Source: Bacteroidota bacterium (GTDB taxonomy: Bacteria > Bacteroidota > Ignavibacteria > SZUA-365). Taken from it: 64,000 nucleotides of DNA. Position numbers and translations under genes: made by a program. The stretch is from the NCBI GenBank assembly GCA_035362335.1, contig DAOSDL010000009.1:208-64207 (forward strand), read 5' to 3'. Numbering within the stretch: the stretch's first letter is position 1; every line of letters starts with the position of its first letter. Positions 42,201-64,000 of the stretch are shown piece after piece. The notes under the pieces were generated by a model. That model was given only the letters and a program-made list of their open reading frames with translations. It was not told the origin of the DNA and searched no databases.

Positions 42201-42220
42201 ATATTCGTCTATGCGAATAT
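42201..42220. promoter_or_regulatory. Putative ArsR operator (7-bp inverted repeat)
   Basis: ATATTCG-tctatg-CGAATAT, 16 bp upstream of the arsR ATG. Confidence 0.5.
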
Positions 42221-42235
42221 GCGAATGGATTTACC

Positions 42236-42619: not shown

Positions 42620-42628
42620 GGAAGGACC

Positions 42629-43702: not shown

Positions 43703-43773
43703 TCGCTCCGGCTCTTTCACGAGCCGGATACGGCACACAGCCGACGCTACACATTTTAGATCATGGAGCACAC

Positions 43774-45300: not shown

Positions 45301-45359
45301 GACCCTCGCGCCGTAACATGCCGCATGAACAAGGGTGCTCATTATCCGGAGTCCTCGCG

Positions 45360-45851: not shown

Positions 45852-45854
45852 GCC

Positions 45855-46457
45855 ATGCGCCGCGTACTGCTCTGGTCTGTTCTCGGCATTGCGGTGATCT
45901 TCACCGTAGTGCATTTCTGGCCGGAAAAAGTCATCGAACGCGAGCACGGCGTGCTCTGCCCCGACGAACCCGCGCAGACGCCCAGCACACGCAAGGCACC
46001 CTGGCTGCACGGGGATTTCATGATGACAGCGCTCGCCGACTACGACATTCGCGCACTGGTGCTGCACCGCTACGAGTATTCCAACGGCAAGGAGTCCGAA
46101 ATCTCGCCGGTGGATTTCGCGCTCGGCTGGGGACCGATGTCGGACATGTTTGTCGTGGAAAAGCTCGAGATCTCCCAAGGGCATCGCTGGTATCAATGGC
46201 GCGTAAAGGAATTGATGCCGATTCCCCAGCGCGACATCGAACGCTCGAGCGCCAATGTGCATATCATCCCCGCCACCGCCGATGTCGAGGACAAACTCGA
46301 CGACGTGTATCAGGGCAGCATCGTACACATGAAGGGCCACCTGGTGAAAGTCACCTCCGATGGCGGGTGGCATTGGGTCTCCTCCACCTCGCGCGACGAC
46401 ACCGGGCATGGCGCCTGCGAGGTATTCTGGGTGGATGAGATCACTGTTGAAAATTGA
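45855..46457 (+). CDS. Hypothetical N-terminally membrane-anchored protein
   Basis: TM segment LLWSVLGIAVIFTVVHFW. No recognisable motifs. 4-bp gap to the upstream gene. Confidence 0.45.
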   Translation: MRRVLLWSVLGIAVIFTVVHFWPEKVIEREHGVLCPDEPAQTPSTRKAPWLHGDFMMTALADYDIRALVLHRYEYSNGKESEISPVDFALGWGPMSDMFVVEKLEISQGHRWYQWRVKELMPIPQRDIERSSANVHIIPATADVEDKLDDVYQGSIVHMKGHLVKVTSDGGWHWVSSTSRDDTGHGACEVFWVDEITVEN

Positions 46458-46539
46458 CAACGATTGACGCACCTCCGCGCCGCCTCGGCAGACAGGGGCG
46501 GCGTGCATTTTCTCATTTCACACTGCAAGGAGCGTTGCC

Positions 46540-47325
46540 ATGTGGATTGCCGCCATCATTCTGATCGGAGTCGGTGGACTGCTGCTGTATTTCCGGAAGC
46601 GTACACAGGATCGATTGCTTGACATTCGTTTCGTGAAAACCAGCAGCATCGCCGAAACACTCGAGGAGCAGCGCGCCATCGCTGCCGAACTGGGTCCCGG
46701 CGGCTATGCGCAGCAGAAAGAATTCAAAGGCACGGTACGTTGCGATGCACCGCTCACCGGGGAGTTGTCAGGTCAGCCCTGCGTCTACTACACGATGAGT
46801 GTAGAGGAGCGCTACGAGGAAACGTACACCGAGCGCGACTCGCAGGGCAACACGCAGACACGCACGCGCACGGGCAGTGCCGTGGTGGCAAGCAACACGC
46901 AACACACGCGTTTTCTTTTGGACGATGGCAGCGGCAGCATTGCCGTGGACTTCGATGGCGCCAGCGTGGACGCGCGCAAGGTGGTGGAGCGCTACGAACC
47001 CTACGCGGGCGGCGGTGGTTCGCTGCGCGTGGGGAGTTTCACCCTGTCGCTGGGCATGGCTGCTGGTCCCCGGCGTGTACTCGGCTACCAGTACCGCGAG
47101 TCCATCATCCCGGTCGGCCAGGCACTGTACGCGCTGGGCGAGGTAAACGACAGCGGTGGCGAGGCGGTGCTGCGGCGTCCCGGGGATAAAAAAGCCCCGT
47201 TCATTCTTTCCATCAAGAGCGAAGAGGAACTCACCCGCGACAGCGAGCGCAGCATCACCTTTCTGCTCTGGGGCGCGGTGGGTTGTTTCGTCATCGGCGC
47301 AGTGCTGTTGGCACTGTCGTTCTGA
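46540..47325 (+). CDS. Hypothetical membrane protein with N- and C-terminal TM helices (GIDE-like architecture)
   Basis: TM1 WIAAIILIGVGGLLLYF and TM2 FLLWGAVGCFVIGAVLLALSF flank a ~200-aa soluble domain. Confidence 0.4.
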   Translation: MWIAAIILIGVGGLLLYFRKRTQDRLLDIRFVKTSSIAETLEEQRAIAAELGPGGYAQQKEFKGTVRCDAPLTGELSGQPCVYYTMSVEERYEETYTERDSQGNTQTRTRTGSAVVASNTQHTRFLLDDGSGSIAVDFDGASVDARKVVERYEPYAGGGGSLRVGSFTLSLGMAAGPRRVLGYQYRESIIPVGQALYALGEVNDSGGEAVLRRPGDKKAPFILSIKSEEELTRDSERSITFLLWGAVGCFVIGAVLLALSF

Positions 47326-47653: not shown

Positions 47654-48457
47654 ATGTTTACAACGAGCGGAATCGAGAGCAACAGCACCATACATGCGCA
47701 GCGGTTTTTACCGCTGATGCAGGCCCTGGCCAACGCCAGCGCGGCCTGGATCATGCCGTACTTCCAGTCGGGCACCGCAGTGGAAATGAAGCCCGACGCC
47801 ACGCCCGTTACCGAGGCCGATCGCGGTGCCGAGCGCGTCATGCGCGAGATGATACTCACCGCTTATCCCGAGCATGGGGTGACGGGTGAGGAATATGGCA
47901 GTGTGCACGCCGACGCCGAGTACCGCTGGGTGCTCGATCCCATCGACGGCACAAAATCCTTCGTGGCCGGTGTGCCACTGTTCGGCACGCTTATCGCGCT
48001 GTGCCACTACGGCGTGCCTGTACTGGGCTGTATCAACCTGCCGGCGCTGGGCATGCGCGTGCTGGGCGACGGTACGCGCTGCACGCTGAACGGGCGGGCG
48101 GTGCGTGCACGCAATATCGGCTCGGTGGATCGGGCGACCCTGTTGGTGACCGACCCTGCCGATATCGCGCGCCGGAAATCCGCCGCGGCTTTCCATCGCC
48201 TCAGCCAGCGCGTGGCGCTGTATCGAAGCTGGGGCGATTGCTACGGCTACGCCCTGCTGGCCACCGGCGCGGCCGACATCATGATCGATGCTTCGCTGCA
48301 GTCCTGGGACATGATGGCGCTGCTTCCGATTTTTGCCGGCGCGGGATTGGCCGCCGTGAATTACGAAGGAGGCGGCGCGTTGGGCTCCAACAGTCTTGTT
48401 GCCGCACATCCCGCCCTGCTCGATACCGTGATCTCCCTGCTCAACGAAAAACACTGA
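47654..48457 (+). CDS. Inositol monophosphatase-family phosphatase (possibly histidinol-phosphatase HisN-type)
   Basis: WVLDPIDGTKSF metal-binding motif. WGDCYGYALLATG. Confidence 0.75.
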   Translation: MFTTSGIESNSTIHAQRFLPLMQALANASAAWIMPYFQSGTAVEMKPDATPVTEADRGAERVMREMILTAYPEHGVTGEEYGSVHADAEYRWVLDPIDGTKSFVAGVPLFGTLIALCHYGVPVLGCINLPALGMRVLGDGTRCTLNGRAVRARNIGSVDRATLLVTDPADIARRKSAAAFHRLSQRVALYRSWGDCYGYALLATGAADIMIDASLQSWDMMALLPIFAGAGLAAVNYEGGGALGSNSLVAAHPALLDTVISLLNEKH

Positions 48458-48761: not shown

Positions 48762-49841
48762 ATGAAACAACGCATCACCCCCCGCACACTGCTTTCCCGC
48801 TTCCTCGTCGCATTGCTGCTGGCCGGGAGCGCCTATGTGTTCTGGCTTCAGATTGGCGACGTTCCGCTCCGAAACATCTACTCGCTCATCGCCGACATGG
48901 GACCATCGATCGCGCTGATCCTTCTTCCGTTCGGCGTGGTGATGTTTTTCGATGTGCTTGGCTGGCGGCATTGCATCACCGACGAGCGCGTGTTGCCGCT
49001 GCGTCGCCTCTTCGCCATCCGTCTCTCGACGGATGCGGTGATGAACACCTTGCCTGCGGGCGTGGCCGTGGCCGAGCCCCTGCGCAGCGTGTTGCTGCGT
49101 GACGTGCTCGGACTGCGCATGACCGATGCAGTGGGCGCCACCATTCTCGCCAAGATCAATCTGGCCATCGCGCAATTCCTCTTCATTCTTACAGGCGTGG
49201 GACTGGTGCTGCTGCACGCCCGGCAGCACGAGGGCAGCGCGATGTTGCTCGATGCGGCTGGAGGATGGACATCGGTGCTGCCGGTATCGGTACTCGCTTT
49301 GGGACTGCTGGCGCTGCCCTACAGCGGGCCCCGACTGTCGCAGCTCCTGCGCTTGCTGGCAAGCATTCCCTTGCGGCCGTTGCGGCGCGGTCTTGCGCGC
49401 ATTGACGAGGCCGTGCGCTCCATTGACAGCTATGTGGGAACGTTCGCGCGGGAGCATCGCAGTCGCTTCGTGACCTCGCTGTTGCTGTTCACCTGGAGTT
49501 GGCTGTTCATGGCCGCCGAGACCTGGTTGATCCTGCAGTTGCTCGGCGCGGACATCAGCATGACGCAGGCCATTGTCTTCGAGGGCGTTGCCTCGATTGT
49601 GCGGCTGATGTTCTTCTTCCTTCCCGCTGGCATCGGCGCGCAGGATGTGAGTTTCGTGGCCATGCTGCAGGCTTCGGGCATTCCCGAGGCGGCCGTCATC
49701 GCGGTGGCCTTTGTGCTGCTGCGCCGAGGCAAGGAACTGCTGTGGAACGGCGGTGGCCTGCTCTTACTGGCATGGCTGCGGGTGGGACGGTTGCGGCGCC
49801 GCGATGATGGACTCGCGCTGTCGCCGGAGGCCGCCACATGA
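48762..49841 (+). CDS. Flippase-like / LPG-synthase-TM (UPF0104) domain membrane protein
   Basis: Polytopic membrane protein. Second member of this family in the window. ATGA overlap with the next gene. Confidence 0.6.
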   Translation: MKQRITPRTLLSRFLVALLLAGSAYVFWLQIGDVPLRNIYSLIADMGPSIALILLPFGVVMFFDVLGWRHCITDERVLPLRRLFAIRLSTDAVMNTLPAGVAVAEPLRSVLLRDVLGLRMTDAVGATILAKINLAIAQFLFILTGVGLVLLHARQHEGSAMLLDAAGGWTSVLPVSVLALGLLALPYSGPRLSQLLRLLASIPLRPLRRGLARIDEAVRSIDSYVGTFAREHRSRFVTSLLLFTWSWLFMAAETWLILQLLGADISMTQAIVFEGVASIVRLMFFFLPAGIGAQDVSFVAMLQASGIPEAAVIAVAFVLLRRGKELLWNGGGLLLLAWLRVGRLRRRDDGLALSPEAAT

Positions 49842-50890
49842 AGCGCATTCTTTTCATCTGCGGATCGATGAATCAGACCACGCAGATGCACGCCATCGCT
49901 CGGCAGCTCGAGGAATACGACTGCCATTTCACTCCGTTTTATTCGCATGGTCTGCTGGGATGGCTCGCGAAGCATGGCGTGCTGGAGTTTTCCATTCTGG
50001 GATCGAAGCTCGGTACACGAGCGCTTGCATACATGCGTCAGCACGATCTCCAGGTGGACCTTCATGGCAAACAGCATCGCTACGATCTCGTACTCACATG
50101 CAGCGACCTCGTCATACCTCGCAACATCCGCGATAATCGTGTGATACTGGTGCAGGAGGGCATGACCGATCCGGAGGGACTGGCCTATCATCTGGTGAAA
50201 TGGCTGCGACTTCCGCGATGGCTGGCCAGCACGAGCACAACGGGACTGAGTCACCGGTACGATCTGTTCTGCGTGGCGAGCGAGGGTTATCGTCGTCATT
50301 TCCTCCGCAAGGGTGTGCGGCCGGAAACACTGCGCGTGACGGGTATTCCCAATTTCGACAACTGCGCGGCCTATCGCGACAACAGCTTCCCGCATCGGGA
50401 TTTCGTGCTTGTGGCCACCAGCGATGCGCGTGAGACCTTCAAGTACGAGAATCGCTCCGCACTGATCCGTCGCTGTCTGCGCATCGCCGATGGACGGCAG
50501 CTCATTTTCAAACTCCATCCGAACGAGGACGCGCGGCGCGCCACGCGCGAAATCGCCGCGCTGGCACCGGAAGCTCTGGTGTATGCCGACGGCGACATTC
50601 ATCACATGATCGCCAACTGTGCGGTGCTCGTCACACGTTTCTCCAGTGTGGTGTATGTGGGACTCGCGCTGGGAAAAGAGGTGTACTCCGCCTTCGACAT
50701 CGACGAATTGCGCGCGCTGCTCCCGTTGCAAAACGGCGGCACATCGGCGCAGCATATCGCTCGGGAGTGTCGCATGCTCATGGAACGGGAAAGCGCGCCA
50801 CGACGTGTTGTCCGCGACGCGTATCCCTGGCTCGACACGTTCTTTTCTCCACAACCATTCGCGCGCCTGCGCGCAAAATTCCGGGGCTGA
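49838..50890 (+). CDS. Putative GT-B-fold glycosyltransferase (MGDG-synthase/2-epimerase-like)
   Basis: N-terminus KRILFICGSMNQTTQMHAIARQL and C-terminal Rossmann-like half. Translationally coupled to the upstream membrane protein. Confidence 0.45.
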   Translation: MKRILFICGSMNQTTQMHAIARQLEEYDCHFTPFYSHGLLGWLAKHGVLEFSILGSKLGTRALAYMRQHDLQVDLHGKQHRYDLVLTCSDLVIPRNIRDNRVILVQEGMTDPEGLAYHLVKWLRLPRWLASTSTTGLSHRYDLFCVASEGYRRHFLRKGVRPETLRVTGIPNFDNCAAYRDNSFPHRDFVLVATSDARETFKYENRSALIRRCLRIADGRQLIFKLHPNEDARRATREIAALAPEALVYADGDIHHMIANCAVLVTRFSSVVYVGLALGKEVYSAFDIDELRALLPLQNGGTSAQHIARECRMLMERESAPRRVVRDAYPWLDTFFSPQPFARLRAKFRG

Positions 50891-50893
50891 ACA

Positions 50894-51742
50894 ATGCGCA
50901 TCGTGATAGTGATACAAGCGCGCATGGGCAGCACGCGATTGCCCGGCAAAGTGATGCTGCCTCTTGCCGGCGAGCCGCTGCTGCTGCGCATGATCGAGCG
51001 CGTGAAAGCCGCGCGCACGCATGCCACCGTTGTGGTGGCAACAACCAGCAGCAAGGATGACGACCCCATCCGCGCGCTTTGCGCAGCCAACTTCGTGCCC
51101 TGCTACAGCGGCGACGAGCACGACCTGTTGGACCGGCACTACCGCGCCGCCTTGCTGCACGATGCCGATGTCGTGGTGAAAATTCCTTCGGACTGCCCTC
51201 TCATTGACCCCAAAGTCATCGATCGCGTCATTCTGGAGTACGTACGCTACGCGCGGGCCTACGATTACGTGAGCAATCTCCACCCCGCCACCTGGCCCGA
51301 CGGCAACGATGTGGAGGTGATGCCCATCCGTGTGCTGCGCGAGGCATGGAAAGAAGCGCGCCGGCTCTTCGAGCGCGAGCACACCACACCATTCATCTGG
51401 GAGCAGCCCGACCGGTATCGCATCGGCAATGTGCTGTGGGAGAGTGGACTGGATTACTCGATGTCGCATCGCTGGACTATCGATTATGAAGAGGACTACC
51501 GCTTCATCGCGGCGGTGTACGATGCGTTGTACAGTGCGGAGCGCCCGATCTTCGGCGTACACGACATACTCGCGCTGCTACATCGACAACCCGACATCGC
51601 GACGCTCAACAGCGGCTACGTGGGAGTAAACTGGTACCGCCATCATTTGCACGAGTTGCGTACCGTGCGACCGGAACACACGTGCATGCCTGGCAACTCA
51701 CGGGATTTTCATTCACCTTTCGCCATTGGGAACGCCTCATGA
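50894..51742 (+). CDS. Cytidylyltransferase, CTP_transf_3 family (SpsF/PseF/NeuA-like CMP-sugar synthetase)
   Basis: MRIVIVIQARMGSTRLPGKVMLPLAGEPLL N-terminal signature. Confidence 0.75.
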   Translation: MRIVIVIQARMGSTRLPGKVMLPLAGEPLLLRMIERVKAARTHATVVVATTSSKDDDPIRALCAANFVPCYSGDEHDLLDRHYRAALLHDADVVVKIPSDCPLIDPKVIDRVILEYVRYARAYDYVSNLHPATWPDGNDVEVMPIRVLREAWKEARRLFEREHTTPFIWEQPDRYRIGNVLWESGLDYSMSHRWTIDYEEDYRFIAAVYDALYSAERPIFGVHDILALLHRQPDIATLNSGYVGVNWYRHHLHELRTVRPEHTCMPGNSRDFHSPFAIGNAS

Positions 51743-52596
51743 CCGATATGGAACACCTCGCCTTGCACGAACGCGCGATGCGCGTGCGCGAACATATCAT
51801 CCGCATGTCCACCGACGGCGGCTGCTTCATCGGCGCCTCGCTCTCCTGCACCGATCTCATCATGTATCTGTACAGCAGCGTGCTGAACATCGCGCCCGAT
51901 CGCGTGGACGATGCGCAGCGCGACTACTTTCTGCTCTCGAAAGGCCACGATGTACCGGCGGTGTACGGCACCTTCGCCGAGCTGGGCTACATCGGCGCGG
52001 AGCGACTGCGCAATCACCTGCACGCGCATGACGTTCTGTACTGGCATCCGAATCGCGGCGTGCCCGGCGTGGAATTCCACTCCGGCTCGCTCGGTCACCT
52101 CTTGTCGGTGGGCATCGGCGTCGCGCTGGATATTCGCCTGCGCAAGGCGGGCAATCGCGTGTTCGTAATGCTGGGTGATGGCGAATTGAACGAAGGCAGC
52201 GTATGGGAGGCCTGCCTGGTGGCGGGTGCGCAAAAACTGGATCAGCTGGTTGTGATTATCGATCGCAATGGCTTTCAGGCGAACCTGCGCACCGAAGAAC
52301 TGCTTCCGCTGGAATCGCTGGAACAAAAGTTCGAGGCCTTTGGCTGGGCTGTGCGCCGCATCGACGGGCATTCCTTTCCCGCGATGGAGGACGCCTTCTC
52401 GTCACTGCCGTTCGAACAGGGCAAACCGAGCGTGCTCATTGCGGATACTGTGCGTGGCAAGGGCCTCCCAAGCATAGAGCAACGCGCGGACCGCTGGTTC
52501 GTGAATTTCAGCGGCGAGGAAGTGAGTATGCTGTTGGACGAATTGCACGGGCACTCCGCGGCGCAACTGCACTCGGCCGCTCTGCACGTGCGTTGA
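51739..52596 (+). CDS. Transketolase, N-terminal (TPP-binding) subunit of split transketolase
   Basis: HPNRGVPGVEFHSGSLGHLLSVGIGVAL and VMLGDGELNEGSVWEA motifs. Confidence 0.85.
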   Translation: MTDMEHLALHERAMRVREHIIRMSTDGGCFIGASLSCTDLIMYLYSSVLNIAPDRVDDAQRDYFLLSKGHDVPAVYGTFAELGYIGAERLRNHLHAHDVLYWHPNRGVPGVEFHSGSLGHLLSVGIGVALDIRLRKAGNRVFVMLGDGELNEGSVWEACLVAGAQKLDQLVVIIDRNGFQANLRTEELLPLESLEQKFEAFGWAVRRIDGHSFPAMEDAFSSLPFEQGKPSVLIADTVRGKGLPSIEQRADRWFVNFSGEEVSMLLDELHGHSAAQLHSAALHVR

Positions 52597-52626
52597 TCAA
52601 CTATCCGTGTACAAGGACATCGCATC

Positions 52627-53580
52627 ATGACGTACGAAGAACAACTCCTCGCCCTCGCCAAAGAGGACGAGCGCATTGTGGTGATGACAGCCGAGAATCG
52701 CGCCGCCATCCGCGGTTTGCCCGCGCAACTGGGCGAGCGCTTCATCGACGTGGGTATTTGCGAACAGACCATGGTGGGCGCGGCCGCCGGGCTGGCGCTG
52801 CGCGGGCGCATTCCCGTGCTGCACGCTCTCGCCACCTTCCTCACCATGCGCGCCTTCGAATTCATTCGCACCGACATCGGCATCGGGGGACTGCCCGTGA
52901 AACTGGTTGGCGCCGTTCCCGGGTTTCTTTCCGATGGCAACGGCCCCACGCATCAGGCGTTGGAAGACATCGCCATCATGCGCGGCATTCCGGGTATGCA
53001 GGTGTTTTGTCCCGCCGACAACGATGAATTGCTGGCGGGTCTGCCCGCCATGCTGGCGACACCCTTCCCCTGCTACATCCGCTACAATGCGATGCCGGCA
53101 GTGGTGCGGCATCACGAGCCCTTCGCGCCGGGACGCGCCGAGCAATTCGGAGAGGGAAATGATGTGGCCTTGCTGACCTACGGTTTCCTGTTGCGCGAAG
53201 TGCTCGAAGCGCAGCGCCTGCTCGAAGCCGAGGGATTGGCCTGCCGCGTGGTGAATCTGCGCACGCTCGCTCCCCTCGACAAGGACATGCTGCTTTCCGC
53301 CGTCGCCGCGTGCGGCACCGTGGTGACCGTGGAGGATCACTTCCTCACCGGCGGCTTGTACAGCATACTCGCCGAGTTGCTGTTGGCGCATGGCATGACC
53401 GCTTCGGTGCTGGCCATCGCCATGGACAGCCGCTGGTTTCGTCCGGCCACCCTTCCGCGCGTGCTTGAGCACGAGCATTTCACCGGCGCACATATCGCGC
53501 GTCGCATACTCCACGCCCTTGCCCCCGAGGAAGAATTTGTGCGCGGCAACGGGCAACCTCTGTTCAAAACCTATCTCTGA
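52627..53580 (+). CDS. Transketolase, C-terminal (pyrimidine-binding) subunit
   Basis: FIDVGICEQTMVGAAAGLALRGRIP. HQALEDIAIMRGIPGMQVFCPAD. Confidence 0.85.
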   Translation: MTYEEQLLALAKEDERIVVMTAENRAAIRGLPAQLGERFIDVGICEQTMVGAAAGLALRGRIPVLHALATFLTMRAFEFIRTDIGIGGLPVKLVGAVPGFLSDGNGPTHQALEDIAIMRGIPGMQVFCPADNDELLAGLPAMLATPFPCYIRYNAMPAVVRHHEPFAPGRAEQFGEGNDVALLTYGFLLREVLEAQRLLEAEGLACRVVNLRTLAPLDKDMLLSAVAACGTVVTVEDHFLTGGLYSILAELLLAHGMTASVLAIAMDSRWFRPATLPRVLEHEHFTGAHIARRILHALAPEEEFVRGNGQPLFKTYL

Positions 53581-53583
53581 GTC

Positions 53584-54924
53584 ATGGCCAATACCGTCGC
53601 TTTCAACGAACACTACCCCGTCATCGAGCAATCCACACAACTGCTCGCGCGCGCCGAAGCGCTGATACCCGCGCAAACGCAAACGCTCGCCAAAGGTCCC
53701 GGACAATACGTGCGCGGCGTGGCGCCGGTGTTTGCCGTGCGCGGCAAGGGTGCGCATGTGTGGGATGTGGACGGCAACGAATACATCGACTACAACATGG
53801 GGATCGGTCCGATTTCGCTGGGCTACGCCTACCCGCGCGTGGACGAAGCGATACGCGCGCAGCTCGAGGACGGCATCACCTTCTCGCTGGTGCATCCGCT
53901 GGAAGTGGAAGTGGGAGAATTGCTGCGCGAGATTGTGCCATCGATCGAGATGCTGCGCTACTCCAAAGCCGGCAACGACGTGACCTCGGCAGCGGTGCGT
54001 CTGGCGCGCGCGTTCACCGGCCGCAACACCGTGCTGTGTTGTGGCTACCACGGCTGGCACGACTGGTACATTGCCGTGACCGACCGCAATCGCGGCATTC
54101 CGCAAGCGACACAGGATTTGACGTACACCTTTCAATACAACGACATCAACTCCGTGATCGACTCCATCGACGACGACACCGCCTGCGTGATTCTCGAACC
54201 CGCGGTATTCGAGGCGCCGCGGGAGGGATTTCTCGAAGAACTCCGCGCGGTGTGTGATCGGCACGGCGTGTTGTTGATTTTCGATGAAATGTGGACGGGG
54301 TTTCGTCTGGCCCTGGGCGGAGCGCAGGAGTACTTCGGAGTGCGCGCGGATCTGGTGTGCTACTCGAAGGCCATTGCCAACGGCATGCCGCTCAGTGTGC
54401 TGGGCGGTCGCGCCGACGTGCTTCGCCTGTGCGAGCGCGACGTGTTCTTCTTCACCACTTTCGGCGGAGAGGCGCTGTCGCTGGCGGCGGCCAAGGCCAC
54501 CATGCTGGAAATGCGCGAGAAGCATGTGCAGGACGAGCTGTTCCGCCTGGGCTCACGAATGATGAATGGTTTCCGGAGTCTCCTGTCGGATATGCATATC
54601 GACTATGTGGGCATCACCGGCTTCGCCCCGCGCAGCATGGTGACCTTCGATGCGCGTGCCGGCAATCCACTCATTCTCAAATCGCTGGCGCAGCAGGAAT
54701 TGATAAAGCGCGGCGTGCTGTGGTCCGGATTTCACACCATGAGTTTCTCCCACAGCGATGCCGACATCGACCACACGCTGGCGGCATGGCGCGAGACACT
54801 GCAATTGCTGGACGAGGCCGTGGCCGGCGGCGATCCCTCAGCGATGCTGCGGGGCGCACCGGTGGAGCCGGTGTTTCGCAAGACGTCGAATTTCAACACG
54901 CGGGCACGCGGCGTGACGCGTTAG
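53584..54924 (+). CDS. Class-III PLP-dependent aminotransferase (glutamate-1-semialdehyde aminomutase-like)
   Basis: LIFDEMWTGFRLALGG and catalytic Lys in YSKAIANGMP. Confidence 0.8.
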   Translation: MANTVAFNEHYPVIEQSTQLLARAEALIPAQTQTLAKGPGQYVRGVAPVFAVRGKGAHVWDVDGNEYIDYNMGIGPISLGYAYPRVDEAIRAQLEDGITFSLVHPLEVEVGELLREIVPSIEMLRYSKAGNDVTSAAVRLARAFTGRNTVLCCGYHGWHDWYIAVTDRNRGIPQATQDLTYTFQYNDINSVIDSIDDDTACVILEPAVFEAPREGFLEELRAVCDRHGVLLIFDEMWTGFRLALGGAQEYFGVRADLVCYSKAIANGMPLSVLGGRADVLRLCERDVFFFTTFGGEALSLAAAKATMLEMREKHVQDELFRLGSRMMNGFRSLLSDMHIDYVGITGFAPRSMVTFDARAGNPLILKSLAQQELIKRGVLWSGFHTMSFSHSDADIDHTLAAWRETLQLLDEAVAGGDPSAMLRGAPVEPVFRKTSNFNTRARGVTR

Positions 54925-54957
54925 GTCGCCAGCAACATACGCAAGCCGGAGCATGCC

Positions 54958-55911
54958 ATGATAAGCCAGTTGATGTCGGAAGCGGTGCGCACACGAAGCA
55001 CCATACTGCGCGAACGCCTGAGTGCGCAACTCACCGCCGAATACCGTCTGCGCTGTCTCTCCATCAATACACATCGCGGCCAGGGACCGAAGTTGTCGCT
55101 GTTGCGCGACACGCGTTCGCCCGAAGAGGCGCAGCGCATTGCGCTGATGCACGACACGCGCGCCTACGCGTATTTCATCGCGGAGTGGTTGAATACGCAT
55201 CGGCAGCGCTACGATGTGGTGGCCTTGCAGGAAGTGTTCAGCGGCATTTTGGGCGTGGGCGAGCGCATCGTGCAGAAGTATCGGCAGCGCGACCATTACC
55301 GCGTACTGAGCGGTTTCGCGAGTTATCTCGAGCACGGTGTGGGCTTCGCGGGATTCCGGTATCAGAATCTGCTGCTCAGTCAGATGCCCAAGCTCTCGCA
55401 ATGCGCCTTCAACCGCCATCTCCCCGGCAAGGTGTTTTTTCTCGCGAGTTGCGGTTTTACGCTCGCGCCGTTTCTTTTAAAAGATGTGATCGTCTGGATT
55501 GGCAATACGCATTTGCACGCGTACAGTCCCGCCGCGCGCATGCGGCAGGCGCGCAGCATCGCGCAGGTGATACGCTCGCTGGGTGATGTGCCCGTGGTGT
55601 TCATGGGCGACTTCAACACCGTGCCGGAGGGTTTCCGCATCGACAGTTTCGGACCGGGCGACATCGACCGCTACGACTACCGCAACGACAGCACGCTGCG
55701 CATACTCGAGGACGCCGGTCTCTCGACCGTGCACCATGCCGACGCGCGGCCCTTTCACACCTATCCCACAGGCATGCCCAATCGCACACTCGACTACATC
55801 ATGTGGAGTCGGCATTGGCATGTGCACGATTACGGCGTACTGCACGATTTCACCCTCAGCGACCATTATCCTGTCCACGCCGAACTGGAATTGAAACTCC
55901 GCGACAACTGA
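54958..55911 (+). CDS. Endonuclease/exonuclease/phosphatase (EEP) family protein
   Basis: C-terminal [13 protein letters not shown] motif. NTHLHA..., GDFNTVP. Confidence 0.6.
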
Positions 55912-55918
55912 GAACAGC

Positions 55919-56776
55919 ATGCACAACATCACCATGAACGGCGCCGCCGAGCAGGGCGCGCTGCAGCAGTTTCGACTCGATGGCCGCGTGGCCATCGTCA
56001 CCGGCGCTCTCGGTCTGATCGGCCGCGAGCATTGTCGCGCTCTGGCGGAGGCGGGTGCCACCGTGGTGCTCACCGATACCCGCGCCGACGCCTGCGAGCA
56101 GGCCGCAGCAGCACTGGCCGCTTCCACGGGCATGCCCGCCTTGGGAATGGCGACGGACATTACCGACGCCGAAGCGCTGCGCGGGTTGCGCGACACTGTA
56201 CTCGAGCGCTTCGGCCGCGTGGACATTCTGGTGAACAATGCCGCCATCAACGATATGGTGGAAGATCCCGTGGCCGCCGCCGAGCTTTCGCGCTTCGAGA
56301 ATTATCCGCTCGAACTCTGGCGTCGCTGCCTCGATGTGAATGTGACGGGCGCCTTTCTCTGCTCGCAAATTCTTGGAGCACCCATGGCCGAAGCGGGCCG
56401 GGGCTCCATCATCAACATAGCGAGCACTTACGGCATAGTGGCGCCCGACCAGTCGCTGTACCTCAAACCCGATGGGACGCAGCCCTTTTTCAAATCGCCC
56501 GTGTATCCCGCAAGCAAGGGGGCGATACTCTCCTTCACGCGTTTTCTCGCCGCCTACTGGGGAGCGCGCGGTGTGCGCGTCAACGCGCTCTCGCCCGGCG
56601 GTGTGGAGAACGGGCAGGCCGACTACTTCGTGCAGGCCTACAGCCGCCGCACTCCGCTGGGACGCATGGCATCGAACAGCGACTACCGCGGTGCCCTGCT
56701 CTTCCTTGCCAGCGACGCATCGTCGTATGTCACCGGCGCGAATCTCGTGGTGGATGGCGGCTGGACCATCTGGTGA
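55919..56776 (+). CDS. SDR-family oxidoreductase
   Basis: [11 protein letters not shown] Rossmann motif. NNAAIND. Catalytic YPASK. Confidence 0.85.
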
Positions 56777-56811
56777 TTGCGGGACACGCGCCCGCGTTGT
56801 ACTTTGAGCGC

Positions 56812-57378
56812 ATGAACACACTCGAAGCCAACAGCATACTCCCCGCGCCGCTCGGCGGCTTTCAACATATCGCGCCGGCCGAGGCCCGCAAACGCGCAGC
56901 CCGCATTCGCCTGCTGCTCACCGACAACGATGGCGTGCTGACCGACACCGGCGTGTACTACGGTCCCGACGGCGAACTGGTGAAGCGCTACAGCATACGC
57001 GACGGCATGGGCGTCGAGCGGCTTAAGCTCATCGGCGTGGAAACCGGCATCATCACCGGCGAGAAATCGCTCAATCTCAAACGTCGCGCCGAAAAGCTCC
57101 GCCTCGCGCATCTGTACCTCGGCATCAAGGACAAGACCGCCACCATCGAGGCCATTCGCCGCGCGGCGAATTTGTCCATGGATGAAATCGCCTATATCGG
57201 CGACGATGTGAACGATCTCCGCGCCATGGATCTGATCGGCGAGCGCGGACTGACCGCGGCTCCCGCCGACGCCATGCCGCAGGTGCGCGCCATCGCCCAG
57301 TACCTCTGCGCCTGGAATGGCGGCGCGGGCGCGTTCCGCGATTTCGCCGAGGCGCTGATTACCTTGCGGGGGAGGTGA
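56812..57378 (+). CDS. HAD-family KdsC/YrbI-like phosphatase (Kdo-8-P / KDN-9-P phosphatase type)
   Basis: LLLTDNDGVLTD motif I. IGDDVNDL motif. Confidence 0.8.
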   Translation: MNTLEANSILPAPLGGFQHIAPAEARKRAARIRLLLTDNDGVLTDTGVYYGPDGELVKRYSIRDGMGVERLKLIGVETGIITGEKSLNLKRRAEKLRLAHLYLGIKDKTATIEAIRRAANLSMDEIAYIGDDVNDLRAMDLIGERGLTAAPADAMPQVRAIAQYLCAWNGGAGAFRDFAEALITLRGR

Positions 57379-57425
57379 ATCGGTAATCGTGAATCGTGAA
57401 TCGTTAATCGTTAATCGTGAAATGT
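57377..57425. repeat. Tandem octamer repeat (AATCGTKA)x6 immediately after the KdsC-like stop
   Basis: gaatcggtaatcgtgaatcgtgaatcgttaatcgttaatcgtgaaatg. Confidence 0.5.
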
Positions 57426-57707
57426 GAACAGGCGTGAGGAAGCTGTCCTTGAGACGAGAGCGTCCACTTTCCAGGCGCCTGCTGTCAGACTCGACTAATA
57501 CGCGCATATACCTCGATTAACGTCACTTGATCCTGTCGCAATCGGCGTACCGTCTTTACTCTTTACTCTCCTCCTCCCCTCACACTGCGCTCACACCACC
57601 CTCACCCCGGCGCAACGAAAGACACAACAGTATTTAACCGAGCGCTCAAATTCTCCTTACATGCCGCGGCTACATTGCTATCGTAAGGTAATTCCACCAT
57701 TGGAGGC

Positions 57708-58619
57708 ATGCGTATGGCAACGGCAGTGCGCCGCATCGGAGACATCGAGGTCGGGGAAGGTCATCCCGTCTATATCATCGCGGAGATCGGCATCAATCAC
57801 AACGGTTCGCTGGACATCGCGAAAAAGCTGATCGACGGCGCGGTGTTCGCCGGCTGCAACGCGGTGAAATTCCAGAAACGCACGCCTGAACTGTGCGTAC
57901 CCCGCGAACAATGGGACGTGCAGCGCGATACGCTGTGGGGTCGCATGTCGTACATCGATTACCGGCGTTTGATGGAGTTCACCGAGGAGCAATACGCCGA
58001 GATCGATCACTACTGTCGTGCGAAAGGTATACACTGGTTCGTGTCCGCATGGGACGAGGAAGCGGTGGACTTCATCGAACGCTTCGACACTCCGTTGTAC
58101 AAGGCGCCGTCCGCATCGCTCACCGATCTCCCGCTGCTCCATCACATGAAAGCCACGGGCAAGCCGCTGATGATATCCACGGGGATGTCCAGCATGGAAG
58201 AGATCGAAACCGCAGTGGACGAACTCGGCACCGACAATCTCCTCATCGCGCATTCCACCTCCGCCTATCCCTGCGAGATTCACGAGTTGAATCTCCGCAT
58301 GATCGACACGCTGAAAAGCAACTATCCGGACACCCCGATCGGGTATTCGGGACATGAAACGGGTCTCGCGCCCACCTGGGCGGCGGTGGCGCGTGGCGCC
58401 TGCTTCGTCGAGCGCCATATCACGCTGGATCGCGCCATGTGGGGATCCGACCACGCGGCGTCGGTGGAAATCGTCGGTTTGTACCGCATGGTGTCCAATA
58501 TCCGCGACATCGAGCGCGCGATGGGCGACGGCGTGAAGCGCGTGTACGAAAGCGAACTCGCCCCGCGGAAGAAATTGCGCCGCGTGCACACGAACACGCA
58601 GGCAATGACCACGAACTGA
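57708..58619 (+). CDS. NeuB-family synthase (sialic acid/KDN-9-P/pseudaminic-type PEP-condensing enzyme). Apparently lacks the C-terminal SAF domain.
   Basis: IIAEIGINHNGSLDIAKKLIDGA. HSTSAYPC. 302 aa. Confidence 0.8.
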   Translation: MRMATAVRRIGDIEVGEGHPVYIIAEIGINHNGSLDIAKKLIDGAVFAGCNAVKFQKRTPELCVPREQWDVQRDTLWGRMSYIDYRRLMEFTEEQYAEIDHYCRAKGIHWFVSAWDEEAVDFIERFDTPLYKAPSASLTDLPLLHHMKATGKPLMISTGMSSMEEIETAVDELGTDNLLIAHSTSAYPCEIHELNLRMIDTLKSNYPDTPIGYSGHETGLAPTWAAVARGACFVERHITLDRAMWGSDHAASVEIVGLYRMVSNIRDIERAMGDGVKRVYESELAPRKKLRRVHTNTQAMTTN

Positions 58620-58707
58620 CTCTCCGTACCATTCATCTCCGCGCTTCGCCGGCATCGGTACGCACGCCACGGCGTCCGATGCCGGTCGAAGTTTCGGCTT
58701 CATCCGT

Positions 58708-59490
58708 ATGACGCTCACCCTGCTCTCTCCCCTGATCATCGTCGCCGCGGCCGTGCTGATCGTGCTGCTGGAGCGCCGCTTTCCCTATGCGCCAGAACAG
58801 CACTTTTTGCGCGAAGGATTCTGGAACGACCTGCTGCTGTACTCCATCGTACAGAGTTACGTACTCGGTTTGCTGATCAGCGTTGCGTTGACGGCGGTGG
58901 ACAATGCCACCGGACTGTCGCGGGCCCGCATCGTCAGCGATTGGCCGGTATGGACGCAGGTGTTGCTGTTCGTGGTGACGCACGATTTGTACATTTATGG
59001 CTTCCACCGCTGGCAGCATCGCAACAAGCGACTGTGGCGTTTGCACGAGGCGCATCATTCCACCAGGGACGTGGATTGGTTGTCGGGTTCACGCTCGCAC
59101 GCACTGGAGATTGTGATCAATCAAAGCGTGGAATTCGCTCCCATCGTGTTGTTGGGCGCCGCACCGGAGGTGGCGCTGTACAAAGGCATGATCTCCGCCG
59201 TGTGGGGCATGTGGATACATGCCAATGTCAATGTGCGCAGTGGCTGGCTGCAGTTCGTGATCAACGGTCCGGAAATGCACCGTTGGCATCACTCCGACGA
59301 GATCGCCGATGGGTCGTACAACTACGCCACCAAGCTGGCGCTGTGGGATTGGTTGTTCGGAACGGCCCGCCTTCCCGGACGCAAACCCGGCGCCTATGGC
59401 CTCAAGGAAATCGATTTCCCCCGCAACTATCTCCGCCAACATCTTTTCGCCTTCCGTCCTTTCCGCGGCGACGTGTATCTCGATCGCTGA
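58708..59490 (+). CDS. Fatty acid hydroxylase/sterol desaturase superfamily membrane protein
   Basis: Histidine boxes HRWQH, HEAHH, HRWHH. Confidence 0.8.
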   Translation: MTLTLLSPLIIVAAAVLIVLLERRFPYAPEQHFLREGFWNDLLLYSIVQSYVLGLLISVALTAVDNATGLSRARIVSDWPVWTQVLLFVVTHDLYIYGFHRWQHRNKRLWRLHEAHHSTRDVDWLSGSRSHALEIVINQSVEFAPIVLLGAAPEVALYKGMISAVWGMWIHANVNVRSGWLQFVINGPEMHRWHHSDEIADGSYNYATKLALWDWLFGTARLPGRKPGAYGLKEIDFPRNYLRQHLFAFRPFRGDVYLDR

Positions 59491-59930: not shown

Positions 59931-60099
59931 AATACCTGCAACATCTAGAAATGTTAAAAATCCATCGCTCTGTCCTGCTCTCATTTTTTGCATTGCATCC
60001 GGTGTTAAAGGATAGTCGTTTGAGTACGTCATGCCCGGAAGTGCGATGGTTCCGTTCTGATAGTATGCATCGCCCAGTGTGGTGTAATCCGACCCTCCA

Positions 60100-61700
60100 T
60101 ATCGTATTCCATACACAAGATTGGAAAAAGAGCTGTCAATTATCCCTGAATCCATGAGTCCCGATTTTTGAGAAGTGCGTTTGAGGCCGTATTTTAGGGG
60201 GTACGCGCCACTTTCCACCTTCCGAACGGTCTCACCTGACAGGTTATGAACATTCGCGTTGAATCCACCTCCTCGACGATCACCAATCACGATGGTTTGT
60301 TTCCGATCGGCGAGTTTTTCAAGAAATCCGATTTCGGAAAGGACATCAACGCCCACTCGTCGGTTGTGGAGCGAAAGAGTGTGCCGAGTGACCGCGACGT
60401 GGTTTTCAGCATGATCGCGCTGTATGTGATCGGCAAGCCCACCTACGAAGCCATCGAGGAGTATCGCTATGACCGGTATTTCCGCGAGGTGCTCGGAATA
60501 CGAAAGATTCCATCGGCCGAAACCCTTCGCCAGCGTATCGAACAGCTTCCCGCAGGTGTGCAGCGGGTGATCCTTCGCTGGAACGCGGAAATCATCAAGG
60601 CCGGGTTTGCCGATGTGGCATCGCAGGGAAGCGCACGGGAGCGGTGGAGCGAAGCGGTGACGGTCGGAGAGAGGCAGTACATGATGGTCGACAGCGATGA
60701 CTCGGTGCTCGACAACTCGAACAGCAACAAGGAAGGCGTGAGCTGGACCTACAAGAAATGCGATGGCTACGGCCCGATGTTCAGCTATATAGGCAGGAGC
60801 GGTTATATGCTCAACAACGAGTTGCGCGAGGGCTCGGCGCACTCGAACTGCCCCGGTACGGTGGAGTATTTCACCGAAACGATCACGTTGGCGAAGACGA
60901 TGACGGATTTTCCGCTGTTGATGGTACTCGACAGCGGGAACGACGCGAAACCCGTGTTGCAGGAAATGCTCTACATCGACAATGTGTTTTTCGCCATCAA
61001 GCGCAATCCCCGCAAGGAACCGACGCAGGAATGGATCGATTACGCCATCGAGCACGCGGAGCATGTGCGCACGGCGAAAGATGGCAGCACGGTATACTAT
61101 GCGACGGAGAAGCGCGATCTGAACTTCGATGACGTCGTCATGCCGGTCCGCGTGGTGCATGTGGCGCGCGAGCGCTTCGCCGATGAGCACGGCCAGATGC
61201 TGCTCGAATCGGAGCGGAGTGTCGAGGGCTACTGGACGAACCTCGACGCGACGGCGACCGAGGTCGAAGAGGTATATCATCAGCACGGAACGAGCGAGCA
61301 ATATCACGCCGAATTGAAAAGCGATCTCGGCGTGGAACGCCTCCCTTCTGGGAAATTTTATGCCAACAAGTTGCACTTGCTGTTCTCCATGATCGGGTTC
61401 AATCTGCTGCGTCGTATGGGAACGAAGTTGCTGTTGACCGGGAAATCGCCCGGCAAGCGCGGCAGACGTCTACGCTTGCGCACGGTTCTCCAGAGTGCGA
61501 TCTATCTCGCCGGCGTTGTGGTCTCGCACGCGGGCCAGTTGATTCTGCGTGTTTGCGAGCACAATGCCTGGACGCCGGCATTTCTCTCGTCTCTCTGAGG
61601 AAGCTCCTCCTCCCGTGTTGAAATAATGCCTTCGCTCCGATCACCGGAGCCGTTCCGGCATGTACATGATCATATTATCCGATATATTCAGCGCATGAAA
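60100..61700 (+). mobile_element. IS1380-family insertion sequence (ends not precisely defined)
   Basis: Transposase ORF plus lower-GC flanks. Terminal inverted repeats could not be confidently identified by eye. Confidence 0.4.
60246..61598 (+). CDS. IS1380-family DDE transposase
   Basis: C-terminal signature YHQHGTSEQYHAELKSDLGVERLPSGKFYANKLHLLFSMIGFNLLR. 450 aa. Confidence 0.8.
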   Translation: MNIRVESTSSTITNHDGLFPIGEFFKKSDFGKDINAHSSVVERKSVPSDRDVVFSMIALYVIGKPTYEAIEEYRYDRYFREVLGIRKIPSAETLRQRIEQLPAGVQRVILRWNAEIIKAGFADVASQGSARERWSEAVTVGERQYMMVDSDDSVLDNSNSNKEGVSWTYKKCDGYGPMFSYIGRSGYMLNNELREGSAHSNCPGTVEYFTETITLAKTMTDFPLLMVLDSGNDAKPVLQEMLYIDNVFFAIKRNPRKEPTQEWIDYAIEHAEHVRTAKDGSTVYYATEKRDLNFDDVVMPVRVVHVARERFADEHGQMLLESERSVEGYWTNLDATATEVEEVYHQHGTSEQYHAELKSDLGVERLPSGKFYANKLHLLFSMIGFNLLRRMGTKLLLTGKSPGKRGRRLRLRTVLQSAIYLAGVVVSHAGQLILRVCEHNAWTPAFLSSL

Positions 61701-61950
61701 TCGTCATAAAAATCGAATCGGTCATGTGAAAGGAACTGGCCATCTCGGAAGTCAATCTCGATTATGTTATTTGGGACGCGCAGATGGAGCTACTCACGGA
61801 TTCAGGCAGCTAGCATGAGTTTGTTGCTGCGCCAAGGTTGCATTTGAAGCCAGCAATAACATCGACAATAATATAGGCAGGCGTTTAATTATTTTCGCGA
61901 TCATAACGTCTCCTTTAAACTTCTGATAAGTACAGTTAGAATCAGAATTC

Positions 61951-63222
61951 TTATTGAGCGAGCGGTTCTTGTATTCCATGAAATACTAGCGACACGATCC
62001 CACCAGAAATTCGTCGCATTCTGGCTAAAACAAAGACATGCCCATCTGAAATATTTATTTGCTTAAATGTCAGATAATCGTTTTCCAATCTCGCAACTTG
62101 TGTGCTTTTCATTCCTTCTACTCGGAATATCTCTCCATCTTCTGTCATGGCAAATAGGTTTGAGTATTGATCCTCAGCCATGGACACTACTGAACTGCCT
62201 TCCCTCAAATCACATATCTCGGAGATCTGGTCGTTAATTACCTGATATATACTGTTACCACCAAATATATATACACTGCCTGAACTACCAAGATAGAATC
62301 GTACATGTTCGCCATTTGATCCTAAGCGCTCATTAAGATTGATACTAAGTATCAACTTATTGAAATATTTATATACATTCCGTAAGCTTCTTCCAGTTGA
62401 CCTCTCGTAGGTTGACACAATCGCATATGTTTCGCTTCGCTCTGTGATTAGAACATCAGATATATAATGTCTCGTTCCTCCTTCGGAATATTTTGCAACG
62501 GGCATTACTACGCTCTCCCAATTAACTCCATTTGAAAGATAAATTGCACCTGAATCCGCACCTAATACGATCTCCCCTTTCGAATTTATAGCACCAGAAT
62601 AAATATGATTGTTCATCTTTACTAAGTTATCAGATCTGTTATTTGTTGCTAAAAAGCCAGTCTCAGTGAGGCTAATTCGTTCTCCTGCTAAGAAATACTC
62701 TGAATTTAATCTTCCAAACACTGAGCTCGGGCTCAGGTCGGATGTGCTCTGGTATCTTTGCTCGATCATTATTGCTCGCCAGGAAGTACCATTATATTCC
62801 CAAACATCCCCACCACGAGAAGAGCAAAAACCCGCAACCACAATCAACGACGGATCATGCCCCCAAAGCTCAGTAAGATCTGTTTGATACGTACCTTGGA
62901 AACTGAGAGTATCACACTCCCATTCCAACTTATCGAATATGCTGATTTTGGCGGTCGATTGAGAAATATCGTCGTTACACCCTCCTATCAATATTCCAAT
63001 CAGAAGACAAGTCACCTGAATAGCATGACGACTCGTTCGCGATACTTTAGTATCAAATAAACGTATTTTGTCCAAAATATATCGAACCCATCTCAACTCT
63101 CGAAGGACTTGCCGGTCAACTTCGTTGATCATATCCTGAATAGCTAAAGCGTATTCTCCGTTGATCAGCCACAGTTTCCGCGAAAAGTTCTGCTTGGACA
63201 TCTTAGACGCTCCACCCGTCAT
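61951..63222 (-). CDS. Hypothetical protein in low-GC island, possibly a lipoprotein with beta-propeller-like repeats
   Basis: Internal ..VTCLLIGILIGGCNDD.. lipobox-like segment. Repeated GxxxxIYxSxxG/W beta-strand-like motifs. ~40% GC vs ~65% surroundings. Confidence 0.4.
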   Translation of the reverse strand: MTGGASKMSKQNFSRKLWLINGEYALAIQDMINEVDRQVLRELRWVRYILDKIRLFDTKVSRTSRHAIQVTCLLIGILIGGCNDDISQSTAKISIFDKLEWECDTLSFQGTYQTDLTELWGHDPSLIVVAGFCSSRGGDVWEYNGTSWRAIMIEQRYQSTSDLSPSSVFGRLNSEYFLAGERISLTETGFLATNNRSDNLVKMNNHIYSGAINSKGEIVLGADSGAIYLSNGVNWESVVMPVAKYSEGGTRHYISDVLITERSETYAIVSTYERSTGRSLRNVYKYFNKLILSINLNERLGSNGEHVRFYLGSSGSVYIFGGNSIYQVINDQISEICDLREGSSVVSMAEDQYSNLFAMTEDGEIFRVEGMKSTQVARLENDYLTFKQINISDGHVFVLARMRRISGGIVSLVFHGIQEPLAQ

Positions 63223-63936: not shown

Positions 63937-64000
63937 TTATTTCACCTCCACCACCACGCCGGCGGTGTGCGCGGCGAATTCGGGAGCGTACATGCTCTGT
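63937..64000 (-). CDS. 3' end of an unidentified gene (partial)
   Basis: Reads ...MYAPEFAAHTAGVVVEVK* in high-GC sequence running off the window. Confidence 0.25.
   Translation of the reverse strand, partial: QSMYAPEFAAHTAGVVVEVK

Follow-up and report, generated by a model that had tools for sequence, protein, structure and literature searches.

The subject of this analysis is a gene cluster at positions 48762-59490 of a 64,000-nucleotide stretch of DNA (hereafter the window) from a Bacteroidota bacterium of the Ignavibacteria (SZUA-365; assembly GCA_035362335.1, contig DAOSDL010000009.1). The list of open reading frames (ORFs) and the gene calls place 11 co-directional genes there, all on the + strand (Table 1), with spacings of -4 to +35 nucleotides and a single exception, a 330-nucleotide gap upstream of the gene for a NeuB-family phosphoenolpyruvate (PEP)-condensing synthase. 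Families were assigned from Pfam and NCBIfam profile scores relative to their curated cut-offs; besides NeuB they include a cytidylyltransferase (CT), a protein with a glycosyltransferase (GT) fold of the GT-B type, two subunits resembling a split transketolase (TK) dependent on thiamine diphosphate (ThDP), an aminotransferase (AT) dependent on pyridoxal phosphate (PLP), an SDR oxidoreductase, a HAD phosphatase and a membrane protein of the FA_hydroxylase family (FAH). An earlier note, made from the sequence alone, had proposed a one-strand cluster of about 10 kb with these families, and the profiles confirm all 11 genes at the positions that it gave. Its claim that the flippase-like gene is translationally coupled to the GT-B gene is likewise borne out by an ATGA overlap; the CT and TK-N genes share a second such overlap, and the SDR/HAD junction becomes a third overlap of 4 bp if the HAD gene starts at GTG 56773, the start used in public assemblies.

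Table 1. Genes of the ulosonic-acid-type cluster, with their positions in the window and the profile or model behind each assignment
Product	Coordinates	Strand	Support
HpnL-like LPG_synthase_TM (flippase-like) membrane protein	48762..49841	+	PF03706 (formerly UPF0104), 86 bits
Orphan GT-B-fold protein, proposed CMP-ulosonate transferase	49838..50890	+	AlphaFold2 (AF2) fold, no curated family
SpsF-type CT, proposed CMP-(modified ulosonate) synthetase	50894..51742	+	PF02348/CTP_transf_3, 92 bits
TK-like ThDP enzyme, N-terminal (PP-domain) subunit, TK-N	51739..52596	+	Transketolase_N PF00456, 102 bits
TK-like ThDP enzyme, C-terminal (Pyr + C domain) subunit, TK-C	52627..53580	+	PF02779 + PF02780
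Class-III (GSA-aminomutase-like) PLP AT	53584..54924	+	Aminotran_3 PF00202, 156 bits
EEP-family phosphoesterase	54958..55911	+	Exo_endo_phos PF03372, 63 bits
Classical SDR oxidoreductase	55919..56776	+	adh_short_C2, 175 bits
KdsC/YrbI-type HAD phosphatase	56773 (GTG) or 56812 (ATG) to 57378	+	TIGR01670, 127.5 bits
Short NeuB-family PEP-condensing synthase, 303 aa	57708..58619	+	PF03102, 256 bits
Membrane FAH di-iron oxygenase	58708..59490	+	PF04116, 103 bits

The cluster had been regarded as atypical for one organism, a view that does not survive comparison with other genomes, since it proves to be a widespread conserved operon found in at least six phyla. For this comparison the neighbourhoods of NeuB orthologues were taken from 80 loci and searched with the window proteins by tblastn; the non-Streptomyces loci with enough upstream sequence (n=37) were counted as informative. 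The order GT-B, CT, TK-N, TK-C, AT, SDR, (HAD), NeuB, FAH recurs in 24 of these 37 loci from other species, with 50-80% identity per protein; 19 of the 37 carry a TK-containing operon and 5 a version without an orthologous TK pair. Carriers include Ignavibacteria, Melioribacteraceae and Kapabacteria, members of the Bacteroidota (Chitinophagales, Saprospiraceae, Lewinellaceae and the cultured Hymenobacter negativus and H. setariae), Myxococcota (Polyangiaceae), Chloroflexota (Promineifilum) and Acidobacteriota (Blastocatellia, located via the EEP protein). The AT gene is present in every operon, with or without the TK pair, and the FAH gene in 20 of the 24 complete operons. The HpnL-like gene is found in the clade of the window and, in more divergent form, in three Myxococcota loci, and the EEP gene in the clade of the window, at the same position in the Blastocatellia operon, and beside the SDR gene in Chloroherpeton. 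Each locus has its own, unrelated flanking genes, so that the borders of the operon are sharp.

The arrangement is thus far beyond chance, and the operon is real and conserved. The NCBIfam names 'transketolase' and 'glutamate-1-semialdehyde aminomutase' might suggest that an ordinary Kdn or Kdo module happens to lie beside housekeeping transketolase and HemL genes; this reading can practically be discounted, as the scores behind those names fall below the curated cut-offs, the genes overlap by 4 bp, canonical TK residues have been lost, and the persistence of the same order across phyla with unrelated flanks effectively refutes it. The literature searched for this gene combination yielded no description of the operon, in agreement with the earlier statement that no described pathway matches, and we rate the cluster as a variant of CMP-ulosonic-acid pathways with an uncharacterised set of tailoring genes and a remodelled TK-fold enzyme.

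The synthase is a member of the NeuB domain family, far above its cut-off of 22 bits, with the domain covering residues 41-277 of 303. It is short and without a SAF domain, as had been noted: the protein ends at residue 303 and its match to TIGR03569 stops at model position 279 of 329. It also scores below the equivalog cut-offs for NeuB_NnaB (259 against 400 bits) and PseI (193 against 340). Residues E26, K54, Q56, K132, S135, S157, H216, E235, H237 and D248 align with the metal and catalytic set of Neisseria meningitidis NeuB (E25, K53, Q55, K129, S132, S154, H215, E234, H236 and D247) and are invariant in 50 orthologues; R314 of the N. meningitidis SAF domain, a substrate-site residue, has no counterpart since that domain is absent. 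The HAD phosphatase exceeds its subfamily cut-off (106.95 bits) and lies below the more specific equivalogs for KDN-9-P phosphatase (139 against 180 bits) and KdsC (126 against 208). The CT meets only the PF02348 superfamily; its best KdsB model gives 68.7 bits against a cut-off of 255, with the match limited to the N-terminal 116 residues, PseF gives 23.5 against 206, and in the PDB it matches 6oew (E 8e-36). The triad of NeuB, KdsC-like phosphatase and CT in which the earlier note recognised the logic of KDN/Kdo/sialic-acid-type CMP-sugar synthesis stands, as one of the KDN type, and a descent from the canonical Kdo enzymes KdsA and KdsB does not fit, the synthase belonging to PF03102 and the CT being far from KdsB.

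The NeuB protein has thousands of close relatives, is 62-72% identical among Bacteroidota, Chlorobiota, Chloroflexota, Myxococcota and Streptomyces, and shares 62-66% identity with the NeuB of the Streptomyces clusters, the orthologue in the Kdn teichulosonic-acid cluster being 63% identical. In Streptomyces, the orthologue lies behind a putative GT of the DUF6716 type and a fused CT::HAD gene, an arrangement matched by SCO4879 (NeuE-like), SCO4880 (NeuA) and SCO4881 (NeuB) (PMC3479208); these three genes lie within a cluster assigned to a Kdn-containing teichulosonic acid in the passage of PMC13011467 that cites Ostash et al. (2014). In Chlorobiaceae the linkage is limited to HAD-NeuB, and in Anaerolineales loci the order is SDR, CT::HAD, NeuB, sulfotransferase. 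In an alignment of 84 NeuB sequences we inspected 40 conserved or active-site columns, those aligned to the metal, PEP and sugar ligands of N. meningitidis NeuB among them; none of the 40 differs between the operon, Streptomyces, Chlorobiaceae and Anaerolineales groups, and only 7 fixed differences in 303 residues separate the operon-linked from the Streptomyces proteins. Since these columns are the same with or without TK, AT and SDR genes, the substrate of NeuB does not appear to be custom-built; it is most likely the same common metabolite everywhere, mannose-6-P, which is the substrate of characterised Kdn-9-P synthases (PMC6200933).

The CT is the component that does vary with the tailoring genes. 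Two simple modules of Bacteroidota are informative in this respect: one (L039) consists of HAD, NeuB, GT, CT and LPG_synthase_TM genes, and the other (L059, 2062-9471) of HAD, NeuB, a GSDH-domain protein, GT, a GFO/IDH/MocA oxidoreductase, CT, a PhyH dioxygenase and LPG_synthase_TM. Their GT proteins are 54-55% identical to that of the window. The CT proteins of these AT-less modules are of the NeuA type: they share 54-58% identity with the CT of Anaerolineales and 32-41% with that of Streptomyces, as against just 24% with the SpsF-type CT of the window. Every AT-containing operon has an SpsF-type CT. Within this sample, then, the CT subfamily switches with the AT while NeuB and GT stay constant, which argues that amination of the free sugar follows condensation and precedes CMP activation; the co-variation points to tailoring of the sugar ahead of the CT step. 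An Anaerolineales locus (L060, 4530-11790) joins the NeuB/HAD module to a sulfotransferase, 3'-phosphoadenosine 5'-phosphosulfate synthesis and a PMT-family GT, and such differing tailoring sets on one module, L059 included, suggest that Kdn-type sugars form a family whose members differ in their decorations.

The TK-like pair is related to the split transketolase of Carboxydothermus hydrogenoformans (TK-N to 6yak, E 7e-48; TK-C to 6yaj, E 6e-49), and both subunits were also aligned to human TK, the numbering of which is used here. The pair keeps the ThDP/metal motif GDG...N (GDGELNEG...N), the histidines of SKGH and HPN, the cofactor-activating Glu (C/A-E-Q) and PTHQ. In TK-N, however, His37 is replaced by Cys-Phe-Ile (GGC-FIG versus SGHPG) and His258 by Phe, so that WHG becomes WF (RWF). 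In TK-C, Arg318 is absent, the start lying 3 residues downstream of it in an ORF that is not extendable, Ser345 has become Ala, His416 Val (Val, Ile or Phe across orthologues) and Asp424 Asn, and Arg474 falls within a deletion. The window proteins share these losses with all 24 operon-linked orthologues, which makes them a trait of the family and not a sign of decay. Scores against the NCBIfam transketolase equivalogs are correspondingly low (209 and 166 bits, cut-off 488). In TK, His37 and His258 (H26 and H261 in Escherichia coli) act on the donor C3-OH; Arg318, Ser345, His416 and Arg474 bind the substrate phosphate, and Asp424 reads the 2-OH of the acceptor. With catalytic and phosphate-binding residues gone, it is very unlikely, judging by these columns, that the pair is the housekeeping TK of the organism, which the earlier note had named as the finding that would speak against its proposal, or an extender of sugar phosphates. 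With hydroxypyruvate, pyruvate or another 2-oxo acid as donor, no C3-OH has to be deprotonated, and the site is probably remodelled into a phosphate-free, more hydrophobic one that would take a 2-oxo-acid donor and a non-phosphorylated carbonyl acceptor.

A different solution is seen in a Polyangiaceae operon (L034, 11621-13654), where a fused TK-like protein of 677 aa and of a different lineage follows NeuB; it keeps the catalytic histidines and lacks part of the phosphate-binding set, and looks like a non-orthologous replacement of the split pair. This substitution of another atypical TK suggests that in many lineages a ThDP step does belong with the pathway, despite the operons that have no TK gene.

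These observations bear directly on the order of events proposed in the earlier note, in which TK, AT and SDR would build a non-standard (aminated or chain-extended) aldose phosphate that NeuB then condenses with PEP. All of the genes do share one operon, the presence of a phosphatase implies that the substrate of NeuB is phosphorylated, and higher-carbon CMP-ulosonic acids exist in nature (bioRxiv 10.64898/2026.04.20.719630). We nevertheless consider this order unlikely, and the claim in its original form is not upheld: the NeuB columns are the same whether or not the tailoring genes are present, the Streptomyces Kdn cluster included; the TK-like pair has neither the phosphate-binding residues nor the histidines that cleave ketose donors; TK is absent from 4-7 operon variants in which the AT is still 60-65% identical; and it is the CT, not NeuB, that changes subfamily with the AT.

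The best NCBIfam match of the AT is PRK06209 (GSA-aminomutase-like; 393 bits against 486); it reaches 236 bits against the hemL cut-off of 527 (TIGR00713), in an operon context unrelated to heme, and 269 bits with GntE, an aldehyde/ketone sugar aminotransferase; its relatives in the PDB include aminotransferases acting at C-6' of sugars and on other carbonyls. Among sugar-acid dehydrogenases, the group closest to the SDR, it scores with the gluconate 5-dehydrogenase subfamily (200 bits against 279) and KduD (138 bits), and its linkage to NeuB persists even in minimal loci. The FAH protein comes closest, among curated families, to OlsE, a hydroxylase of ornithine-lipid head groups (124 bits against 475), only the superfamily cut-off being reached. 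The EEP family is small (164 matches), and the AF2 model of its member in the window (pLDDT 82) gives generic EEP-fold matches. Outside any NeuB context, in L086 (7522-10960), an EEP homologue lies beside genes for a Glyco_transf_21 protein (ceramide-glucosyltransferase family) and a DUF6938 protein.

One could imagine instead that Kdn is activated unmodified and that the TK-like pair, AT and SDR, perhaps with FAH, build or modify the acceptor, giving a Kdn-aminolipid; a transketolase-transaminase cascade might, for instance, turn a hydrophobic aldehyde into a 2-amino-1,3-diol, either sphingoid-like or an amino-polyol, onto which the GT would place Kdn. The hydrophobic, phosphate-free character of the TK-like active site would suit such a role, as would the features associated with lipids: the OlsE-like FAH, LPG_synthase_TM, weak MGDG_synth matches in the GT protein, and the Glyco_transf_21 neighbour of the EEP homologue. 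A neuraminic-acid aminoglycosphingolipid of Chlorobium and a Kdn sphingolipid of E. huxleyi offer parallels, in part as citations within PMC6200933. We think this arrangement improbable, because the CT subfamily switches exactly with the AT, which would not be expected for an unchanged sugar, the SDR is nearest to sugar-acid dehydrogenases, the AT is unchanged in operons without TK, and the operon has no genes for acyl-chain or fatty-aldehyde formation.

The earlier description of the second gene product as a GT-B-like glycosyltransferase is sustained as far as the fold is concerned (AF2 model, pLDDT 86, and Foldseek), but not by any curated GT family. The protein is below all Pfam thresholds, with weak matches to Epimerase_2, Glyphos_transf and MGDG_synth in 20-29 of 30 family members; public data contain over 6,000 homologues of this family. 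Foldseek places UDP-sugar 2-epimerases at the top (E 8e-11), with TagF-like polymerases with CMP close behind, and a TagF-like polymerase is its only sequence match in the PDB. Bacterial sialyltransferases have HP and D/E-D/E-G motifs; here H227-P228, an HP motif of the C-terminal domain, and E107-G108 do not vary, the N-terminal motif being Q106-E107-G108. A profile comparison with the DUF6716 GT of Streptomyces gave no significant match. As the gene is paired with NeuB and CT irrespective of AT, TK and SDR, its product is best explained as a CMP-ulosonate transferase. It might otherwise be a nucleotide-sugar 2-epimerase/hydrolase like NeuC or PseG that supplies the aldose, leaving the operon without a transferase of its own. 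The order of the Foldseek matches, and Epimerase_2 as the commonest weak Pfam match (29 of 30 members), speak for this; yet we give it little chance, given that all scores are below threshold at 12-16% identity and TagF-like CMP-binding polymerases match nearly as well, that the phosphatase argues for a substrate derived from a sugar phosphate and not from an NDP-sugar, and that the gene repeatedly adjoins, or is translationally coupled to, the one for the flippase-like membrane protein.

This pairing of GT and LPG_synthase_TM, translationally coupled in the window, recurs in the Myxococcota and in both simple modules, and its recurrence in independent lineages points to a membrane-anchored product. 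A connection with hopanoids, which the HpnL resemblance might bring to mind, was considered and rejected; the score against TIGR03476 (99 bits, cut-off 196) is far too low and there are no hpn genes.

We therefore favour a modular pathway in which a tailored 3-deoxy-2-ulosonic acid of the Kdn type would be activated with CMP and transferred to a membrane-associated acceptor, and we assign this reading a probability of roughly 0.5. It draws on the protein families, the conservation of the operon and the co-variation of gene content, and from these we infer the substrates and tailoring steps. The short NeuB would condense mannose-6-P with PEP to Kdn-9-P, from which the KdsC-type HAD phosphatase would release Kdn; the SDR would then oxidise one hydroxyl of the free Kdn, and the class-III AT would convert the resulting oxo-Kdn to an amino-deoxy-Kdn. 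In the TK-containing operons, a non-phosphorylated carbonyl intermediate may optionally be extended by a C2 unit in a ThDP-dependent reaction. The SpsF-type CT, which would replace the usual NeuA-type CT because the sugar has changed, would make the CMP-sugar, the orphan GT-B protein would transfer it to the membrane acceptor, and the HpnL-like LPG_synthase_TM protein would handle the lipid-linked product. FAH and EEP would supply decorations that vary with lineage, and may act on either the head group or the acceptor. Within this route from Kdn the possible products would be a free-amine neuraminic acid, through oxidation and transamination at C5, or a higher ulosonic acid that is aminated in its tail or extended by C2, the latter arising through a natural cascade of ThDP enzyme and transaminase.

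Several points weigh against this proposal. The position that is oxidised and aminated could be either C5 (yielding neuraminic acid) or in the tail. The role proposed for the TK-like pair derives only from the residues that it has lost. In NeuB, Ser137 (motif S-A-S-L-T-D) replaces the catalytic Glu134 of the N. meningitidis enzyme, so that the chemistry may differ in detail, and the Kdn assignment of the family comes from genetic association in Streptomyces, not from enzymology of the subfamily. Two loci (L001 and L020) have an SDR-(HAD)-NeuB-FAH sub-module with no AT, CT or GT nearby, and the SDR may thus act independently of amination. The GT-B protein matches UDP-sugar 2-epimerases slightly better than transferases, and a NeuC-like role is possible; attachment to a membrane or lipid is deduced from gene neighbours alone (LPG_synthase_TM and the OlsE-like FAH).

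The core of the pathway resembles the Kdn systems of Bacteroides thetaiotaomicron (synthase BT1714 and phosphatase BT1713) and Streptomyces coelicolor (SCO4879-4881) in its NeuB condensation, KdsC-type HAD phosphatase, CMP activation and transfer, although the identity figures given above refer to the Streptomyces-type NeuB and BT1714 is likened by description. The cluster differs in that its CT is of the SpsF type and separate from the HAD phosphatase, whereas that of the Streptomyces systems is of the NeuA type with CT and HAD fused; it has in addition the AT, SDR, TK-like pair and FAH, and its GT belongs to another family than DUF6716.

For the tailoring steps, the closest known logic, by analogy, would be the conversion of Kdo to Kdo8N in Shewanella, where the alcohol oxidase KdnB and the aminotransferase KdnA act on Kdo before KdsB and WaaA. 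There too a hydroxyl of the finished 3-deoxy-ulosonic acid is oxidised, transaminated, and the product CMP-activated and transferred, but the enzymes are not the same: the cluster has an SDR in place of a metal-dependent alcohol dehydrogenase, a class-III in place of a DegT-type AT, and NeuB in place of KdsA as synthase. The TK-like pair shares with the split TK of C. hydrogenoformans the two-subunit TK fold, the ThDP/metal motif, the activating Glu and two active-site histidines, and differs from canonical and split TKs alike in having lost, in every operon orthologue, the C3-OH histidines, the four phosphate-binding residues and the 2-OH Asp. A functional precedent for a tailoring split TK would be Rif15 of rifamycin biosynthesis, and in engineered E. 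coli TKs the same positions have reportedly been mutated for the use of non-phosphorylated or aliphatic aldehydes with hydroxypyruvate. The GT-B protein, finally, resembles GT-B sialyl/Kdo transferases and TagF-like polymerases in its GT-B fold, HP motif and acidic x-E-G motif; unlike the bacterial GT-B sialyltransferases it has Q-E-G instead of D/E-D/E-G, and it reaches no curated family threshold. A bolder version of the proposal holds that the operon encodes an undescribed amino-ulosonic route that starts from Kdn and not from UDP-GlcNAc, that the TK-like pair represents a new class of TK-fold enzymes, and that the product is the head group of a membrane glycolipid in many environmental phyla; in this full form it is doubtful.

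The flanks lie outside the cluster. An inositol-monophosphatase-family gene upstream (47654-48457) was examined as a possible member and set aside, since it is HisN-like and conserved only in the closest relative. Directly downstream lies an IS1380-family transposase gene (60246-61598), and the GC content falls from about 61% to 46-53% over 60000-64000; this low-GC stretch is probably an insertion or foreign segment that marks the end of the conserved region, and it includes a large minus-strand ORF (61951-63222) without a family match. Long antisense ORFs within the cluster (49430-51562, 52597-54525 and 57678-58739, all on the - strand and up to 710 aa) have no family support and were dismissed as artefacts of a GC content of about 60%. 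The gap before NeuB holds a tandem repeat of the heptamer GTGAATC (about 6.7 copies, 57375-57421) that starts at the HAD stop codon and has one copy more in a closely related strain (L088). As this gap is not conserved in an 87%-identical relative (L002), NeuB-FAH may have a variable regulatory region of its own. An Rfam scan of 47-61 kb gave no non-coding RNA, and scans for promoter and terminator consensus sequences gave counts not above those of shuffled sequence.

The remainder of the window is ordinary chromosome, with nuo genes, dnaG, pyrG, cdsA and an ars operon. The last of these, at 42095-45216, resembles arsenic-resistance operons. Besides a regulator of the ArsR type and a transporter of the ACR3/SBF family, it encodes a 505-aa protein in which a low-molecular-weight phosphatase (ArsC-like) domain is fused to an S-adenosylmethionine-dependent (ArsM-like) methyltransferase. 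A second LPG_synthase_TM paralogue (34780-35958, 163 bits) is 24% identical over 121 residues to the HpnL-like protein of the cluster. A GIDE (E3 ubiquitin ligase) domain is present in the product of 46540-47325 (125 bits), which is adjoined by ORFs without a family match (45335-46508). The 1765-aa protein encoded at 5560-10857 combines VWA, DUF11, CARDB and NPCBM-associated domains and is probably a large adhesin-like surface protein.

Sialic-acid-like sugars shape bacterial surfaces, their recognition by phages and the immune system, and the matrix of environmental biofilms. The substitutions in the TK-fold pair coincide with the positions reportedly altered in engineered TKs and are of interest for biocatalysis, and the association seen here between CT and AT provides a rule of thumb for annotation, in that the CT subfamily tracks whether the ulosonic acid is tailored. 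Mass spectrometry has revealed undescribed CMP-ulosonic acids, including higher-carbon forms, in environmental bacteria without assigned genes (bioRxiv 10.64898/2026.04.20.719630). For one such ulosonic acid the operon described here offers a concrete genetic candidate that is also widespread, and its occurrence in cultured Hymenobacter species makes its chemistry directly approachable.

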